Numbered from the stretch's first letter, positions 3,205 to 33,337 are shown. The stretch: 64,000 nucleotides of DNA from Paenibacillus antri (GCF_005765165.1 NZ_VCIW01000004.1:212542-276541), one strand, 5' to 3'. Notes: a model not told the origin generated them from the sequence alone. Made by a program: numbers and translations.

Positions 3205-3311
3205 AACGTTCCCCTCGCTTCGTTATACAAGTTCTTATGCCATGTTCAGTCTATCATCGACGGATTTCCCATAGCGATGAGGCAATTCCAACGTTTACTA
3301 TGAGGATTTTA

Positions 3312-3324
3312 TACATTATGTATT
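3312..3324. promoter_or_regulatory. 13-nt perfect palindrome ATACATTATGTAT in an AT-rich divergent promoter region (candidate operator)
   Basis: Read directly in the 3205-3451 intergenic between the divergent β-helix gene and nagA. Coordinates are ±1. Confidence 0.3.
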
Positions 3325-3451
3325 GGATAAAAGTCGCTTAGTATAAATTAAAATCGGCTTGTAGGAGGGGGAGAACGATTCGCTATACCATGGAGATGTT
3401 CTCGTAATGCCCGGCGATCTAATATACAATTCAGATAGGGGAGTGAAAGCG

Positions 3452-4615
3452 ATGAAAAAATTAGTTATCAACGGTAAAATGTACACGAAACGCGGGATTC
3501 TCGATAACGGAAACCTGTTGATCGACGAAGAAGGTCGGATCGAAGCGGTCGGCGGACCGGAGGTAGCCGCAGGCTGCGGCGAAGCGTCGATCCTGGATGC
3601 TCAAGGAATGACCGTTCTTCCAGGCTTCGTCGACGTCCATGTTCACGGCGGAGCCGGGTTCCATACGATGAAAGGAACTTATGAAGATCTGAACGGGATG
3701 AGTCGGTTTCATGCGGCCCACGGCACGACGTCGTTCCTCGCGACCACGAACACGGATTCGAAAGAAACGATCGTACGGGCGCTGCGAAATTGCGCCGTCT
3801 CGGCCGAGCGGGGGCTGGCAGGGGCAGACCTGCTCGGAATCCATTTGGAGGGTCCATATTTAAGCGCCGCCCGCGCCGGAGCCCAAAACAAGTCTCAATT
3901 ATGCGCTCCGAACGTGGAAGAGCTTCAACGTTTCATCGATGCGTCGCAAGGTCTGATTCGTCTCGCGACGCTCGCTCCGGAACTCGACGGCGGCATGGAA
4001 GCGGTGGAGATGCTGTCGAAGGCGGGGATAACGGTATCGATCGGACACTCCGACGCGACGTACGCACAAGTGTTGGACGCTATTGGGAGAGGAGCTTCGC
4101 AAACGACTCACCATTTCAACGGCATGAGCCCGTTGCATCATCGGGAGCCCGGCGTCGCCGGCGCCGGACTCCTCTGCCGGGAGCTGACGACGGAGCTGAT
4201 CGCCGACGGGATTCACGTGCACCCCGCGGTCGTAAAGCTTCTGTTCGAAACCAAGGGCCCGGATCGCGTATGCATGATTACGGATGCGGTGTCCAGCGCG
4301 GGATTGCCCGACGGCGACTACGGCGACAGAACGATGAAGGACGGTCAAATCTGGTTGAAGGACGGCTCGAGCCTCGCCGGAAGCTCGCTGACGATGATCG
4401 CGGCGTTGAAGAACGCCCTTCGGTTCACCGGATACCCGCTCGAACGACTGTTGCCTTCCTTCACGGCGGTTCCGGCGCGGCAAGCCGGCGTCTCTCACCG
4501 GAAAGGGGCGCTTGAGGCCGGGAAGGATGCGGACTTTTTGATCCTGGATGAAGCTCTCTCTCTCGTGTCGACGTTCGTCAAAGGCAATGAGGTCTATAAA
4601 GCAACTAACGCGTGA
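3452..4615 (+). CDS. nagA: N-acetylglucosamine-6-phosphate deacetylase
   Basis: MKKLVINGKMYTK... then LPGFVDVHVHGGAGF and the metal-dependent amidohydrolase fold. RBS GGGGAG lies upstream of the ATG at 3452. The track ORF at 3407 extends upstream with no RBS. Confidence 0.85.
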   Translation: MKKLVINGKMYTKRGILDNGNLLIDEEGRIEAVGGPEVAAGCGEASILDAQGMTVLPGFVDVHVHGGAGFHTMKGTYEDLNGMSRFHAAHGTTSFLATTNTDSKETIVRALRNCAVSAERGLAGADLLGIHLEGPYLSAARAGAQNKSQLCAPNVEELQRFIDASQGLIRLATLAPELDGGMEAVEMLSKAGITVSIGHSDATYAQVLDAIGRGASQTTHHFNGMSPLHHREPGVAGAGLLCRELTTELIADGIHVHPAVVKLLFETKGPDRVCMITDAVSSAGLPDGDYGDRTMKDGQIWLKDGSSLAGSSLTMIAALKNALRFTGYPLERLLPSFTAVPARQAGVSHRKGALEAGKDADFLILDEALSLVSTFVKGNEVYKATNA

Positions 4616-29389: not shown

Positions 29390-29413
29390 GAACGCCGCGA
29401 GGCGTTTTTTTTC
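29390..29413 (+). terminator. Rho-independent terminator
   Basis: AACGCCgcgaGGCGTT hairpin followed by T8. Confidence 0.6.
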
Positions 29414-29512
29414 ATGACTTCGTCGCCTTCGTAATACTTTCGCCATGTTCGTCGACCGCGAAATGAGCGAAGATCATACATGTAAGACAGAGGAAACGGA
29501 GGCAAGCGAAAC

Positions 29513-30931
29513 ATGGATCGATTAACGAAAACGCACGGGAACAACCACTACGAGGTCGGATTGGAGCACGGCGCATTGCATGTGTTCGCGAATGCCGAGG
29601 TCATGGGCAGCTTCGAGGACAAAGTTTTCGAGATGGCGGACAACAACCTGCGGATTCCCCGCAACCAATATATGAGCTACACCCCGGATGCGCATATCGG
29701 GATCGGAACGTGCATCGGCACGACGGCCGTCTGGAGCATGAAGGACGGCTTCGTCTCTCCGTCGATCGTCGGCGTCGACATCGGCTGCGGCATGCGAGTG
29801 CACACGACGAAACTGCATAAGCGAGACCTGCAGGACAAAGCCGTCCGGCGCCGCCTCATCCAGGCGATCGAGCGGTACGTCCCCACGAACGAACGGACGA
29901 ATTCGCATTACGCGGACATCGATACGATGGACGTCGTTCGATATGGATTGAAGGGATTGCCGGAGCGGTACGTTCCGAACGAACGTTGGGTCTCGCATGT
30001 GGAGCGGTCGACGTTCGCATTCGACCACGAGTACCTCGGGAAGCTGCCGGACAACATTCGAAAATACGCCCACGGCCAGCTCGGGACGCTTGGCGGCGGA
30101 AACCATTTCATCGAACTTCAATACTTGGAAATTCCCGATGAAGCGACGGATACCGCGACGGCGTGGGGATTGTTCGACGGGCAAGTCGTCGTCATGATCC
30201 ACTCGGGGTCGCGGGCGTGGGGCGCGATGCTCGGGCAGTCGTATACGAAAATATTCCGCGAAGCGATGTTCGCATGGGGCGTGACGAATCCGGACCGGAA
30301 TTTGTTATACGCGCCGATCGGAAGCGACGTCGGACAGACGTACCTCCACCTGATGCACTCCGCTCTGAACTTCGCCGTCAGCAACCGGCACATGATCGCT
30401 TACGGCGTGCAACAAGCGTTCTGCGACGTGTTCGGAGCGGAGACGGAGCTTCCCGCGTTGTACGATCTGATGCATAACTACGCGCTCAAGGAGTTCCACC
30501 GGAACGAACCGATGCTCGTACACCGCAAGGGCGCTACTCGCGCCTTGCCGCCGGGCCACTTCTTGAACGCGGCTGCGTACAAGGAAACCGGGCACCCGGC
30601 TTTGATCCCGGGCTCGATGGGAACGGCGTCGTACCTTATGCGCGGCCGGGCGGAAGGGGAGAAGAATTTCTACTCCATCTGTCACGGCGCGGGGCGCGCC
30701 CGGTCGCGGAAGGCGACGAAGGAGCTCGTCACCGTCGATCAATTCGAAGCGTCGATGAAGGTCGGGACCGACGACGAGATCTTGGTCAACCACCGTTCGC
30801 TGAAGTCGATCCTCGACGAGTGCCCGCAAGCGTACAAGGATGTGGATTCGATCGTCGACAGCGTCGTCGGCGCGCGGCTCGCGGACGTCATCGCGAAATG
30901 TAAGCCGATGGCGGCGATCAAAGGCGTGTAA
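29513..30931 (+). CDS. rtcB: RNA-splicing ligase RtcB (3'-phosphate/5'-hydroxyl RNA ligase)
   Basis: Family hallmarks DIGCGMR, GGGNHFIELQ, HSGSR..G. 472 aa. Confidence 0.9.
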   Translation: MDRLTKTHGNNHYEVGLEHGALHVFANAEVMGSFEDKVFEMADNNLRIPRNQYMSYTPDAHIGIGTCIGTTAVWSMKDGFVSPSIVGVDIGCGMRVHTTKLHKRDLQDKAVRRRLIQAIERYVPTNERTNSHYADIDTMDVVRYGLKGLPERYVPNERWVSHVERSTFAFDHEYLGKLPDNIRKYAHGQLGTLGGGNHFIELQYLEIPDEATDTATAWGLFDGQVVVMIHSGSRAWGAMLGQSYTKIFREAMFAWGVTNPDRNLLYAPIGSDVGQTYLHLMHSALNFAVSNRHMIAYGVQQAFCDVFGAETELPALYDLMHNYALKEFHRNEPMLVHRKGATRALPPGHFLNAAAYKETGHPALIPGSMGTASYLMRGRAEGEKNFYSICHGAGRARSRKATKELVTVDQFEASMKVGTDDEILVNHRSLKSILDECPQAYKDVDSIVDSVVGARLADVIAKCKPMAAIKGV

Positions 30932-31039
30932 CACAGGTTATTTACGCATAGTTGACGGACGTCGGAAGACGTTTGATCATATATGGCTCTTGCTCGGACG
31001 GTTCGTAACGAGGCTGGGATTTCCGTATGGTCCCGCAGT

Positions 31040-31135
31040 GCCGCCGCTCGTTCGGTTGGCGGTATCCTGTACGGCCGCTCCGGCAGAAGCCCCTGAACGG
31101 GGTTCGATTCCCCAATCGCTCAAGAGCGATCGCCT
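31040..31135 (+). ncRNA. Candidate structured RNA element with tRNA-like T-arm hairpin (GGGG-TTCGATT-CCCC) and adjacent stem-loops; function unknown
   Basis: A perfect 4-bp stem and 7-nt loop matching the tRNA T-loop consensus lies at ~31099-31113. It is flanked by further hairpins (ATCGCT-caag-AGCGAT, CTCGA-n8-TCGAG, CCTAGGCGGC...GCCGC-CTAGG) inside a 507-nt non-coding gap after rtcB. It cannot be folded into a full tRNA. Coordinates are ±2. Confidence 0.25.
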
Positions 31136-31438
31136 GGCGTGCATTCTCGACTTTCCATCGAGGGTAATGAGGAAGAAGACCAAGAGCATTGGAATCCCTA
31201 GGCGGCTTCAATATGCGCCGCTGCGGCTAGGCTTTGCAATCCCGCGGATCCCGAACAGGCGCCGCCGGGCGCGCATGCCGAGGGAAGAAGAGATGGAGGA
31301 GGGCTGATTTCGGGTCTTTGCTCCGCTCGGAACTCGAAGCTTGCTTCGCCCGGAGATCGCCGGTTCTCAACCGGGATTCCGCCCGCGCCGCAGCGGGATT
31401 CCACGCTTAGGTCGCATCATTCGAAGGAGGTTCTAGAC

Positions 31439-32563
31439 ATGTTTACGAAAATAACGATACAAACGGATGAGCGCGGGTTGCTCTTTCATAAAGGCAGTTA
31501 CGTCCGCATGCTGCTCCCGGGGACGTACCGGTTCGCGCCGTGGTCGCAGCATTCCGTGACGGCGTTGAAGGTGACGAAGCCGTTCGCCGTAGAGGGGAAG
31601 GAACTGGCGTTGTTCCTGCATGACGAGACGCTTACGCGGCAGCTCGATGTCGTCCGAGTGGCGGATCACGAGGTCGTCTTGCATTACGAGGACGGGCAAT
31701 TCGAGCAGCTTCTGAAGCCTGGCGTCTATGCATTCTGGAACGTACTGAAGCGGCACGCGTTCGTGCGGGCGGACATTCGGGATCCGGAGCTCCCGGCCGA
31801 GGTGGATCGCGCGCTGCTGACGAAGCTGACCACGCACGTACAATCGTATGAGATCGAGAGCTTCGAAGCCGGCTTTCTGTTCTACAACCATGTGCTGCAG
31901 CGGCAGCTGGCGCCGGGGAAATATTACTTCTGGCGAGGTCCGACGGCGATACTCGTGAAGACGGTCGATCTGCGCCAGCAGCAGATGGACCTGCTCGGCC
32001 AAGAAATGATGACGGAAGATAAAGTGACGCTGCGGTTGAACTTCGTCTGCCAATATAAGATTGTTCGCCCGGATCGCGCACTCGAGCTGAAGGCGTTCGA
32101 CGAGCAGATTCATATCCAGCTGCAGTTGGCGCTCCGGGAGTACGTCGGATCGCTGAAACTGGACGATCTGCTGCGGCGCAAGCAAGAAGCGGCTTCGTTC
32201 GCGCTGTCGCGCTTGCGCGAGAAGAGCGAGGAGTTCGGGGTTTCGTTCCTGGGTGCGGGCGTCAAGGATATCATTTTGCCGGGGGACATGAAAGAAATCT
32301 TGAACACGGTACTGCTTGCCGAAAAGAAGGCGCAGGCGAACCTCATCACGCGCCGAGAGGAGACGGCCTCGACCCGCAGCTTGCTGAACACGGCGAAGCT
32401 GATGGACGAGAACGAGACGTTGTTCCGTCTCAAAGAGCTCGAATTCCTCGAGAAAATTTGCGAGAAGATCGGCTCCGTCTCGCTTACGGGCGGCGGGGAT
32501 TTATTGGAGCGGCTGCAAATGTTGATCGGCGAGAAGAAGCCTGCGGGGAGAGGAAGGGCGTAG
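31439..32563 (+). CDS. SPFH/band-7 (stomatin/prohibitin-like) domain protein with unassigned ~170-aa N-terminal domain, no TM segment
   Basis: C-terminal half carries band-7 signatures (...KVTLRLNFVCQYKIV...VKDIILPGDMKEILNTVLLAEKKAQANLI...). RBS GAAGGAGG. The stop TAG abuts the ATG of the next gene. Confidence 0.8.
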   Translation: MFTKITIQTDERGLLFHKGSYVRMLLPGTYRFAPWSQHSVTALKVTKPFAVEGKELALFLHDETLTRQLDVVRVADHEVVLHYEDGQFEQLLKPGVYAFWNVLKRHAFVRADIRDPELPAEVDRALLTKLTTHVQSYEIESFEAGFLFYNHVLQRQLAPGKYYFWRGPTAILVKTVDLRQQQMDLLGQEMMTEDKVTLRLNFVCQYKIVRPDRALELKAFDEQIHIQLQLALREYVGSLKLDDLLRRKQEAASFALSRLREKSEEFGVSFLGAGVKDIILPGDMKEILNTVLLAEKKAQANLITRREETASTRSLLNTAKLMDENETLFRLKELEFLEKICEKIGSVSLTGGGDLLERLQMLIGEKKPAGRGRA

Positions 32564-33337
32564 ATGCGGGAACGGATCGCGTCTCAGCTAGATTCGATCG
32601 AGAAGGCGCATGAGTTGAAAGTGTTGTTCGCCGTCGAGTCGGGGAGCCGCGCCTGGGGGTTCCCCTCGGTCGACAGCGATTACGATGTGCGGTTCGTCTA
32701 CGTGAAGCGGCCGGCCTGGTACTTGTCGATCGACGAGAAGCGGGACGTCGTCGAGGTGCCCATCAACGACATGCTGGATATTAACGGGTGGGATCTGCGC
32801 AAAGCGCTGCGTCTGTTCCGCAAATCCAACCCGCCGCTCATGGAGTGGCTGACGTCGGAGCTCGTATACGCGGACAACCTCGGGTTTCGGGACGAATTGC
32901 TGCGGCTGCGGAACCGCGTCTTCTCGCCCAAGGCGTCGATGCACCATTATTTGAGTATGGCGAAGCGGAACTTCCGGGAATATCTGCAAGGGGATCAAGT
33001 GAAAATCAAGAAGTACTTCTACGTTCTGCGTCCGGTGCTCGCGTGCTTGTGGATCGAGAAGTACGATACCGTGCCGCCGATCCGGTTTCAAACCTTGGCG
33101 GAAGACCTGCTCCCGGCTTCTCCCCTGAAGCGGGAAGTGGAACAACTGCTCCGACGCAAGCTCGCCGGCGAAGAGATGGGTCTGGAAAATCGGTTAGATG
33201 CGATTAACGCATTCGTCGAGGCGGAGCTGGAACGTCTGCTCGAGTCGGCTTCCGTCTATGCGACTACCGGCGAGGATCCCACGCCGTTGTTGGACGACGT
33301 GTTTCGGAAGTTCCTTGGAGCCGCGTGGAAGTCTTGA
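32564..33337 (+). CDS. Pol-β superfamily nucleotidyltransferase domain protein (Nuc-transf / pfam10127-like)
   Basis: Catalytic motif GSRAWGFPSVDSDYDV (GS...[DE]xD). 257 aa. Translationally coupled to the SPFH gene (tagATG). Confidence 0.7.
   Translation: MRERIASQLDSIEKAHELKVLFAVESGSRAWGFPSVDSDYDVRFVYVKRPAWYLSIDEKRDVVEVPINDMLDINGWDLRKALRLFRKSNPPLMEWLTSELVYADNLGFRDELLRLRNRVFSPKASMHHYLSMAKRNFREYLQGDQVKIKKYFYVLRPVLACLWIEKYDTVPPIRFQTLAEDLLPASPLKREVEQLLRRKLAGEEMGLENRLDAINAFVEAELERLLESASVYATTGEDPTPLLDDVFRKFLGAAWKS

Follow-up and report, generated by a model that had tools for sequence, protein, structure and literature searches.

RtcB, a permuted tRNA-like RNA, a Band-7 protein and RlaP in one Paenibacillus antri operon: a probable member of a predicted RNA-repair system

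RNA ligases of the RtcB family join 2',3'-cyclic-phosphate or 3'-phosphate ends to 5'-OH ends. A system built around such a ligase was predicted by Burroughs & Aravind 2016: Wang et al. [quoted passage not shown] The nucleotidyltransferase RlaP, named after its association with RNA ligases, is encoded with RtcB in the rtcR-rtcB-rlaP-rtcA loci of Pseudomonas aeruginosa and P. fluorescens, and the enzymes of these two species, the only ones characterised there, add one or two NMPs to an RNA 3'-OH (Carruthers et al. 2025, preprint, PMC12776372). The same authors flag a chemical mismatch, since RlaP leaves a 3'-OH and RtcB needs a 3'-phosphate. An SPFH protein was reported inside the PA14 rtc locus (PaFlo8, PMC13086221). 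The eukaryotic vault particle, which comprises the major vault protein, the TROVE-domain protein TEP1 and vault RNA, is also among the closest known systems.

The window analysed here is a stretch of 64,000 nucleotides from Paenibacillus antri (GCF_005765165.1 NZ_VCIW01000004.1:212542-276541), with positions counted from its first letter. It shares all four components of the Burroughs & Aravind system, RtcB, a tRNA-like RNA, Band-7 and RlaP, in one operon, and is probably the P. antri member of this RNA-repair system. A preliminary description of the locus had proposed an RNA-repair module of an undescribed kind. The first part of this reading stands, as the four parts form one RNA-repair-type module with a tRNA-like RNA; the second does not, as RlaP is named in Pfam and has been characterised biochemically, and the association of Band-7 and b7a-tRNA with RtcB is published. 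Secondary citations and the matching gene context suggest that the RNA found here is the published b7a-tRNA. The locus departs from the Burroughs & Aravind system in its RNA, which is about 430 nt long with a permuted core of the YrlA type and two large covarying flanking domains, and in the regulators of its relatives, which are WYL-domain proteins instead of RtcR. In contrast to the Pseudomonas rtc loci, it has neither RtcA nor RtcR and shows another gene order.

The genes and their signals are as follows.
29391-29412, + strand: terminator-like hairpin AACGCC-GCGA-GGCGTT followed by T8, read from the sequence
29429-29488, + strand: upstream element TCGTAATACTTTCGCCATGTTCG-N8-GAAATGAGCGA.GAT....TGTAAGAC, conserved across related loci
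29513-30931, + strand: rtcB, 3'-phosphate/5'-OH RNA ligase of the archaeal-like type, 472 aa (PF01139, E 3e-118)
31423-31430, + strand: Shine-Dalgarno sequence of the Band-7 gene, GAAGGAGG, read from the sequence
31439-32563, + strand: soluble SPFH/Band-7 protein, slipin-type, 374 aa (PF01145, aa 139-308, E 6e-23)
32564-33337, + strand: RlaP pol-beta nucleotidyltransferase, 257 aa (PF10127, E 7e-95)

The three ORFs lie exactly where the preliminary description had placed them. The 507-nt non-coding gap that it reported between rtcB and Band-7 (30932-31438) is equally plain in the sequence, as is the TAG-ATG junction (32561-32566) at which the Band-7 stop codon abuts the rlaP ATG. The flanking genes encode an ABC substrate-binding protein, a glucosaminidase, a GH92 hydrolase and an SDR; RtcA, RtcR, Ro/TROVE and archease genes do not adjoin the module, as had been noted. 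The glucosaminidase gene on the 5' side ends in the terminator-like hairpin, which isolates the module; this hairpin is absent from the output of a simple terminator scan. The element at 29429-29488 is probably the promoter/operator of the operon: its equivalent lies directly 5' of the RNA in loci that lack rtcB, and about half of the loci have, opposite it, a divergently oriented pair of genes for WYL-domain regulators. Neither a WYL-domain nor an RtcR regulator is present in the window. We infer that a single transcript would start in this region, in response to a presumed inducing signal, and carry rtcB, the ~430-nt RNA, Band-7 and rlaP.

RtcB matches PF01139 over its full length (396 bits for a cut-off of 27, profile positions 13-426 of 426) and aligns to Pyrococcus horikoshii RtcB with an E-value of 1e-76. 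In this alignment, the blocks DIGCG, GGGNHF, MIHSGSR, YDLMHN and SICHGAGR correspond to DINCG, GSGNHF, MVHTGSR, YDVAHN and STCHGAGR of the archaeal protein; they hold what we take to be the metal-binding Asp, Cys and His residues and the guanylylated His (CHGAGR) of the P. horikoshii enzyme. The nucleotidyltransferase, for which a comparison with pfam10127 had been proposed, gives a full-length match to this family (317.8 bits for a cut-off of 23, profile positions 1-248 of 249), whose Pfam name is 'RlaP, RNA repair pathway DNA polymerase beta family', and is 49% identical to proteobacterial plasmid-borne homologues over 218 aa. Its pol-beta signature, contained in ESGSRAWGFPSVDSDYDV, consists of G27-S28, 10 residues and D39-Y-D41, with an extra Asp at D37, and therefore reads GSx10DxD and not GSx9DxD as first written.

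The Band-7 protein combines three beta-repeat units (aa 1-48, 61-112 and 131-182) with an SPFH core that is stomatin-like and a helical C-terminal region. At its N-terminus, the beta-hairpin unit with which the SPFH domain begins is present in two additional copies, so that the supposed unassigned N-terminal domain of 170 aa is in fact about 138 aa of additional SPFH units and no foreign domain. The SPFH core fold is present and is stomatin/HflK-like, of the kind that makes rings and cages. Whereas stomatin, HflK/C, flotillin and QmcA have an N-terminal membrane anchor, the beta-repeats take its place here, and no transmembrane segment is found in the protein (maximal 19-residue Kyte-Doolittle mean of 1.02).

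The gap between rtcB and Band-7 encodes an RNA of about 430 nt (30985-31413), in which a circularly permuted tRNA-like core stands between a 5' and a 3' domain.
30985-31091, + strand: RNA domain I (RNAalifold consensus and pair counts, 73 sequences)
31098-31114, + strand: T-arm GGGG/TTCGATT/CCCC, with invariant GGGTTCRANTCCC (sequence 31099-31113)
31115-31130, + strand: acceptor-like stem of 6 bp capped by a loop, ATCGCT-CAAG-AGCGAT (covariation; own pairing read from the sequence)
31131-31145, + strand: degenerate D-arm region CGCCTGGCGTGCATT (comparison with a divergent clade)
31146-31162, + strand: anticodon-arm-like hairpin, 5-bp stem CTCGA/TCGAG and 7-nt loop CTTTCCA (alignment)
31178-31413, + strand: RNA domain II, nested multi-helix (pair counts, 53 sequences)

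Our comparative set comprised 79 Paenibacillaceae loci with a related Band-7 gene, in which RlaP was sought within 5 kb. A counterpart of the RNA lies 5' of Band-7 in all 79, and the T-loop motif GTTCRANTC recurs in 78 of them, about 330 nt 5' of the Band-7 start. The gap had been described as rich in stem-loops; folding of the single sequence supports this only marginally (z = -2.2), and the comparative evidence for structure is strong. Between 89 and 93% of cells are paired, against 31-48% with slid partners, and none of 500 shuffles equalled the observed value. We assign the RNA to the + strand because it has many G-U pairs. Two hairpins (31013-31021/31029-31036 and 31038-31048/31054-31065) lie within the long, irregular stem that closes domain I (30985-31012/31067-31091); in this domain, 92.9% of cells are paired in the 73 sequences, 29 pairs have changed on both sides, and 0/500 shuffles reach this value. 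Domain II is closed by GACC/GGTC (31178-81/31410-13) and GGAATCCC/GGGATTCC (31191-98/31395-31402), both read from the window sequence, and nests inner helices at 31202-06/31215-18, 31221-27/31387-93 and 31236-45/31371-79, followed by 31253-61/31359-66 and 31302-05/31313-16. Here 88.8% of cells are paired (31-47% when slid), with 42 pairs changed on both sides and again 0/500 shuffles. The two domains have no sequence-detectable counterpart outside Paenibacillaceae. Rfam 15 contains no family that matches the RNA and none for b7a-tRNA. A genuinely folded RNA of ~430 nt, absent from Rfam 15, is what our analysis adds to the predicted system, and the comparative evidence for it is strong.

The core runs from the T-arm through the capped acceptor hairpin and a D remnant to the anticodon-like arm. 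The tRNA-like T-arm announced by the preliminary description is there, GGGG-TTCGATT-CCCC at 31099-31113, and its closing pair covaries (GC 62, UA 8, AU 2), as does the inner pair of the acceptor-like stem (C-G 52, U-A 19). A divergent clade (loci L067, L068, L073, L077, L079 and others) has a canonical D-arm, TAGCTCAGTGGTAGAGCA, at the position of the D remnant. The stem of the anticodon-like hairpin is invariant in 73 sequences. An authentic tRNA is ruled out: a loop caps the acceptor stem, the order is permuted, and ARAGORN detects no tRNA in the window or at the equivalent position in 33 related loci.

The closest likeness of this core is YrlA (Wang et al. 2018; Hughes et al. 2020), a structured non-coding RNA that is encoded next to RtcB and next to a ring- or cage-forming protein proposed as cofactor. 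It shows the same succession of T stem-loop, acceptor-like stem-loop and D stem-loop, which we find at 31098-31145, and our acceptor-like stem occupies the position of its 'AS' stem-loop. The present RNA differs in being three to four times longer and in having retained its own anticodon-like hairpin; the chain break is therefore at the variable-loop position and not in the anticodon stem. The ends of the core run into domains I and II and form no terminal helix of the Ro60 type. A YrlA-type Y RNA was rejected for lack of this helix, of a flanking TROVE/Ro gene and of the Ro-binding motif GNCGAAN0-1G, sought by eye in the RNA. At most, the RNA may work like YrlA by analogy, without being a member of that class.

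Could an RNA so placed act mainly in cis? As a leader, it would sense uncharged or damaged tRNA, or a small ligand, and control how well the Band-7/rlaP message is translated or how stable it is. Its location is what such a leader would have: always directly 5' of the Band-7 gene and on the same strand, at a nearly fixed distance of the T-loop from the start, with a 3' end about 10 nt from the Shine-Dalgarno sequence and 25 nt from the start codon, and with no terminator-like site found by scanning 31400-31438. We nevertheless consider this unlikely. No riboswitch or T-box model matches, no terminator/antiterminator alternative is evident and the closing helices leave the Shine-Dalgarno sequence free; besides, the RNA in the window sits within the operon, behind rtcB, its tRNA-mimic core shares the topology of YrlA, which is trans-acting and protein-bound, and the corresponding Burkholderia element is a tRNA look-alike in normal order.

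The loop of the anticodon-like hairpin, with 27 different sequences among 79 loci on its invariant 5-bp stem, raises another alternative, in which the RNA would serve as decoy or sponge against anticodon nucleases and further ribotoxins, or trigger defence as a sensor, within a module that is mainly anti-toxin or anti-phage. Such variation would fit a diversifying pressure, but equally a lack of constraint, and loops of 5-6 nt in some loci are not faithful mimics of an anticodon loop. Hughes et al. [quoted passage not shown] Yet RtcB and RlaP are repair enzymes rather than effectors, none of the three proteins hits a PADLOC-DB 2.0 model (E <= 0.01), and viral contigs yielded no relatives. We thus hold a decoy function to be doubtful, on a par with the cis-acting leader.

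Under the RNA-repair reading that we favour, the RNA would present its tRNA mimic between two large helical domains, and the soluble, oligomerising SPFH protein would assemble with it into a ribonucleoprotein scaffold, by analogy with Ro60 and Y RNA. This scaffold, on the same analogy, may unite nicked tRNA or rRNA, the presumed substrates, with both enzymes. RlaP would restore one or two nucleotides missing from a 3'-OH end, if it has the activity of its Pseudomonas homologues, and RtcB, given the activity of its family, would then seal 2',3'-cyclic-phosphate or 3'-phosphate ends to 5'-OH ends.

The two enzymes are unevenly distributed. RtcB occurs in 25 of the 79 Paenibacillaceae loci, in first position as here in 10, and is lacking in 54; RlaP is present in about 23, leaving about 56 without it within 5 kb. 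The pairing of Band-7 with RlaP in loci devoid of rtcB, named in the preliminary description as a possible argument against the module, does occur (L003, L026, L030, L045 and L059, as well as E. coli and Citrobacter). Since Band-7 is found with the RNA and with RlaP in loci that have no rtcB, the ligase gene is optional, and Band-7 is the gene to which the RNA belongs. One might then suppose that a housekeeping rtcB merely landed beside an SPFH membrane-scaffold operon, all the more as its place here, with the conserved upstream element directly on one side and the RNA on the other, is the one that an inserted cassette would take. We find this highly improbable. RtcB genes from two clades recur, at two positions, in the related operons, and first-position RtcB co-diverges with Band-7 (Spearman 0.88), which argues for a real functional link; RtcB is met again in this context in Burkholderia and Subdoligranulum, the association is published, and Band-7 itself lacks any membrane segment. 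The part of the earlier argument that made rtcB an independent insertion is therefore not borne out.

The RNA and Band-7 are the constant core of these loci, and RtcB and RlaP are optional. With so many loci devoid of one enzyme or the other, the core ribonucleoprotein may act beyond helping both. We tentatively suggest that the Band-7-associated RNA may constitute an undescribed, ornate class of about 430 nt, partner of a vault-like SPFH cage in a repair or surveillance particle that operates with or without RtcB and RlaP. If so, a permuted tRNA mimic with two lineage-specific helical domains would represent a large RNA class previously undescribed. Outside Paenibacillaceae, a T-arm RNA again precedes a full-length Band-7 homologue and then RlaP, with or without RtcB, in loci of E. 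coli, Citrobacter, Burkholderia and Subdoligranulum, which stand behind RtcR/sigma-54 or WYL regulators.

The preliminary description had placed three open reading frames here, and an ORF check found them at exactly these positions, in an operon-like layout with the RNA between the first two:

29391-29412: hairpin followed by eight T's, read from the sequence, which sets the module apart from the upstream gene
29513-30931, + strand: rtcB, 472 aa; PF01139, E 3e-118 (Pfam)
31439-32563, + strand: SPFH/Band-7 gene, 374 aa; PF01145 at aa 139-308, E 6e-23 (Pfam)
32564-33337, + strand: rlaP, 257 aa; PF10127 over its full length (profile 1-248 of 249), E 7e-95 (Pfam)

A gap of 507 nt separates rtcB from the Band-7 gene, and the rlaP ATG abuts the Band-7 TAG (tagATG at 32561-32566), as had been read at the outset. 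Comparison of the nucleotidyltransferase with pfam10127, proposed at the same time, gave the full-length match listed; Pfam titles this family "RlaP, RNA repair pathway DNA polymerase beta family". RtcB is archaeal-like (E 1e-76 against Pyrococcus horikoshii RtcB by alignment), and five conserved blocks align between the two proteins, among them SICHGAGR, which bears the guanylylated histidine. NCBIfam returned only sub-threshold RtcB and HflK matches for the module proteins, the PADLOC defence models matched none of the three (RtcB, Band-7, RlaP), and RlaP had no match among PDB sequences at E <= 1e-3. No Band-7 relatives were found on viral contigs. The module's neighbours are unrelated genes, for an ABC substrate-binding protein, a glucosaminidase, a GH92 hydrolase and an SDR.

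A Band-7 protein of identical sequence is recorded for Paenibacillus antri. A hydrophobic segment is absent from the protein (the Kyte-Doolittle mean over 19 residues peaks at 1.02). The SPFH domain opens with a five-strand beta unit, and the approximately 138 residues ahead of the Pfam domain add two more copies of it: local alignments between the three units have z-scores of 6.2, 6.6 and 3.9, and the AlphaFold model (pLDDT 67) displays three sets of five strands.

The 2016 abstract of Burroughs and Aravind is said to describe modules that combine SPFH/Band-7 proteins with a novel tRNA-like molecule, as well as a new nucleotidyltransferase that associates with diverse ligases. A passage in Wang et al. 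[quoted passage not shown] The P. antri locus is very probably a member of this published RtcB/Band-7/tRNA-like-RNA/RlaP system. The module is not a new kind of system: the initial reading of an RNA-repair module was right as to kind, and its claim of an undescribed system falls to the earlier publication (Burroughs & Aravind 2016, via Wang et al. 2018). The published system is computationally predicted and experimentally almost untouched, this branch of bacterial RNA repair having been a purely computational prediction since 2016. RlaP is present across several counter-RNase repair systems (Burroughs & Aravind 2019, PMC6514570), and a 2026 paper (PMC13086221) reports an SPFH protein inside the P. 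aeruginosa rtc locus.

What is the RNA in the gap? Folded as a single sequence, it beats its shuffled versions by a narrow margin (z = -2.2), so the case for structure rests on comparison. We aligned its 5' half (A2, 73 sequences) and its 3' half (A3, 53 sequences) and analysed both with RNAalifold and pair counting. The consensus folds give the following elements:

about 30985-31413, + strand: the structured RNA, from the consensus folds of both halves
30985-31012 / 31067-31091, + strand: closing stem of domain I, the 5' helical domain, enclosing two hairpins (A2)
31099-31113, + strand: T-arm, GGGG/TTCGATT/CCCC, first in the order of the tRNA-like core
31115-31130, + strand: capped acceptor stem, ATCGCT-CAAG-AGCGAT, 6 bp and a tetraloop, second in order
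31146-31162, + strand: anticodon-like hairpin, CTCGA-CTTTCCA-TCGAG, invariant 5-bp stem and 7-nt loop, fourth in order
31178-81/31410-13 and 31191-98/31395-31402, + strand: closing helices of the 3' half, GACC/GGTC and GGAATCCC/GGGATTCC (A3)

The T-arm, capped hairpin and anticodon-like hairpin all belong to the A2 consensus, and the 3' half is a nested domain with several internal helices, one of which (31253-61/31359-66) displays five or six pair types at single positions in A3. The abundance of G-U pairs settles the strand as +. Standard pairs are formed in 92.9% of cells in the 5' half and 88.8% in the 3' half, against 36-48% and 31-47% when partners are slid by 1-3 columns; 29 and 42 pairs, respectively, are changed on both sides, and the covariation scores are 0.231 and 0.332, versus at most 0.064 and 0.115 in slid controls, structures derived from the same alignments as were counted favouring the true register by that alone. 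The observed value was attained in 0 of 500 shuffles in each half for all five measures, which bears out the structured RNA first proposed for this gap. Rfam 15 gave no match to the region even at E <= 1, and neither an Rfam family at gathering threshold nor a gene for a tRNA or tmRNA is found in the 64-kb window (Rfam 15, ARAGORN). The RNA is a large, well-supported structure absent from Rfam, with a permuted tRNA core and two lineage-specific domains, and the locus with its 79 relatives provides a covariation-backed secondary-structure model usable as a covariance-model seed.

The T-arm noticed at first sight is present, and in 78 of the 79 loci its loop motif GTTCRANTC precedes the Band-7 start by approximately 330 nt. 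The inner pair of the capped acceptor hairpin covaries (C-G 52, U-A 19). The corresponding hairpin of M. smegmatis YrlA, with a 7-bp stem, is cleaved. The D-arm region, third in order, is degenerate in the window and takes the form of a canonical D-arm, TAGCTCAGTGGTAGAGCA, in a divergent clade. This order of T-arm, acceptor stem-loop and D-arm is that of YrlA (Chen et al.); unlike YrlA, the Paenibacillus RNA keeps a closed anticodon-like arm, so that the chain must enter and leave at the variable-loop position, where domain I and domain II (the 3' helical domain) are attached. At the place of the RNA, neither the window nor 33 related loci gave a tRNA call with ARAGORN. A tRNA in normal order with a huge insertion, in which GCTCTTG (30989-95) would pair with CAAGAGC (31121-27), was ruled out: the pairing is possible in the window only, is absent from the other 72 sequences, and takes its second strand from the capped acceptor hairpin. 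The anticodon-like loop (31151-31157) has 27 different sequences in the 79 loci, some of 5-6 nt, with UUC, UCC, UUU, GAA, GUU and GCA among the triplets at the anticodon position. Such variability over an invariant stem fits either a lack of constraint or diversifying selection. In a rival, less likely reading, the RNA would act as a decoy for ribotoxins.

An orphan T-arm, GGCAGGTTCGATTCCTGC, was seen in the P. elgii/ehimensis/tyrfis clade (L053 4361-4379, and at the same place in L047, L049, L052 and L054-L057), approximately 270 nt upstream of the RNA and after a DUF6847 gene. Neither ARAGORN nor R1, our covariance model of the tRNA-like core, called it (L047, L053, L057). We do not count this second T-loop motif, some 630 nt upstream, as a duplicate of the module: the leftover 3' end of a tRNA or the scar of an integration event could account for it.

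Which parts of the module are constant? The comparison set comprised 79 loci with full-length Band-7 relatives (65-86% identity), all from Paenibacillaceae, and RtcB and RlaP were counted within 5 kb. The counterpart of window 30975-31410 is conserved in 79/79 loci. RtcB of the window type lies directly upstream of the RNA in 10/79; only a different RtcB (25-52% identical) is found in 15/79, and in 14 of these it lies 3' of the Band-7 gene. Any RtcB is thus present in 25/79, RlaP in about 23/79, and neither in about 45/79. The RNA and the Band-7 protein are the invariant unit and heart of the module, and RtcB is not. The suggested survey of Paenibacillaceae neighbourhoods ties the RNA to the Band-7 gene and did not reveal rtcB as a constant partner. 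A second, downstream RtcB accompanies five of the ten RtcB-first loci (L058, L062, L065, L067, L071). That the genes are adjacent by chance is an unlikely rival explanation. Most loci with Band-7 and RNA carry neither enzyme nearby, which is a difficulty for the repair mechanism proposed below. In the 11 RtcB-first loci, RtcB and Band-7 pairwise identities correlate strongly (Spearman 0.88, a value to which a species phylogeny common to both proteins would add), which marks this arrangement as an old one, inherited together, and not as a recent insertion.

Upstream of rtcB, at 29429-29488, the window carries a conserved element, TCGTAATACTTTCGCCATGTTCG-N8-GAAATGAGCGA.GAT....TGTAAGAC, which directly adjoins the RNA on its 5' side in loci without rtcB. 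Since the same element precedes rtcB in the window, rtcB with its own ribosome-binding site lies exactly between element and RNA. We take the element to be the probable promoter/operator of the operon. By eye it contains no match to a LexA/Cheo box or a sigma-54 promoter, and no -35 or -10 hexamer could be confidently assigned. A motif immediately 5' of the RNA, CATCATACATGG, reappears upstream of rtcB as GATCATACATG (29481-29491). Between the rtcB stop and the RNA, a hairpin region, ACGGACGTC..GACGTTTGATCATATATGG (30944-30984), is present in some relatives and missing from L014, L020 and L050; TTGACG-17-GATCAT (30952-30980), which sits in this optional hairpin, was thereby ruled out as a conserved promoter of the RNA. 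Approximately 10 nt separate the 3' end of the RNA from the Shine-Dalgarno sequence (31423-31430), no terminator lies between the two, and a rival reading takes the RNA for a cis-regulatory leader.

About half of the 79 loci carry a divergent gene pair upstream of the conserved element, encoding an HTH-WYL-WCX regulator (~436 aa) and a second WYL-domain protein (279 aa) (for example, L001 846-2988). By analogy, this pair facing the element is reminiscent of two-gene WYL regulators. Five loci have an AAA+ ATPase gene (PF00004) downstream of the Band-7/RlaP genes: L058, L062 (8644-9945), L065 and L067, in the order RtcB, RNA, Band-7, RlaP, RtcB, AAA, and L001, where two unassigned ORFs separate RlaP from the ATPase and the second RtcB is absent. 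None of these WYL regulators, AAA ATPase or other accessory genes of relatives was found in the 64-kb window by tblastn.

Full-length Band-7 homologues with the N-terminal repeats (34-45% identity) also occur in E. coli, Citrobacter, Burkholderia, Photobacterium and Subdoligranulum, in records of a plasmid collection of which several are megabase-sized replicons. In Citrobacter and E. coli, a sigma-54-like promoter (TGGCAC-N5-TGGCA and TGGCAC-N5-TCGCA, respectively) is followed by a leader of approximately 300 nt with a T-arm and adjacent hairpin, then by a slipin (Band-7) gene and RlaP, without RtcB; rtcR lies divergently upstream in Citrobacter, and the E. coli locus has no annotated rtcR. 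The Burkholderia locus runs from a sigma-54-like promoter and a single T-arm through a tRNA look-alike in normal order (7-bp acceptor stem) to Band-7, RtcB and RlaP; of all versions it comes closest to the published wording "strongly resembles an authentic tRNA". In Subdoligranulum, a WYL regulator comes first; the RNA after it contains a pair of T-arms, a capped acceptor hairpin of 7 bp and hairpins resembling D- and anticodon arms, and Band-7, RtcB and RlaP come next. The proteobacterial relatives have RtcR/sigma-54 in place of the WYL regulators of Paenibacillaceae. With R1, the elements of E. coli, Citrobacter and Burkholderia reach 18-26 bits; since places in L079 where two real tRNA genes adjoin reach 22-31 bits, these matches indicate tRNA-likeness in the right place, with homology unproven. 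With nhmmer, profiles of both RNA halves matched the distant loci weakly and at the T-arm alone, and domains I and II had no sequence match outside Paenibacillaceae (E. coli, Citrobacter, Subdoligranulum and Burkholderia loci).

How might these components work together? RtcB enzymes join 3'-phosphate or 2',3'-cyclic-phosphate ends to 5'-OH ends. Two Pseudomonas RlaPs attach one or two NMPs to RNA 3'-OH ends, an extension by 1-2 nt taken as the family activity, with a preference for damaged RNAs, and the authors flag a mismatch: RtcB requires a 3'-phosphate and RlaP acts on 3'-OH (Carruthers et al. 2025, PMC12776372). A soluble SPFH oligomer could bind the tRNA-mimic RNA and form a scaffold analogous to Ro60/Y RNA, which would offer nicked tRNA or rRNA to RlaP, for rebuilding of trimmed ends, and to RtcB, for sealing; damage to nucleic acids, sensed by regulators of WYL or RtcR type, would induce the operon. 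This scaffold mechanism, drawn largely by analogy, has in our estimate an even chance of being right. The module offers a setting for the incompatibility between RlaP and RtcB substrates and for parallels with Ro/Y RNA and vault particles, and, with its four parts compactly arranged in one operon of a cultivable Gram-positive genus, it makes RNP formation testable there.

Two conserved proteins with no Pfam match are encoded 3' of Band-7 or RlaP, one of 482 aa (L002, L016, L031, L032 and L076, 6101-7549) and one of 275 aa (L027, L034, L037, L038, L040 and L042, 6149-6976). In Paenibacillus allorhizosphaerae (L079), an array of 19 tRNA genes (111-2184) immediately precedes an RtcB-like gene (3308-4327; 26% identity with the window RtcB), after which come the RNA and Band-7; a tRNA array beside a module of the tRNA-repair type may be no coincidence.
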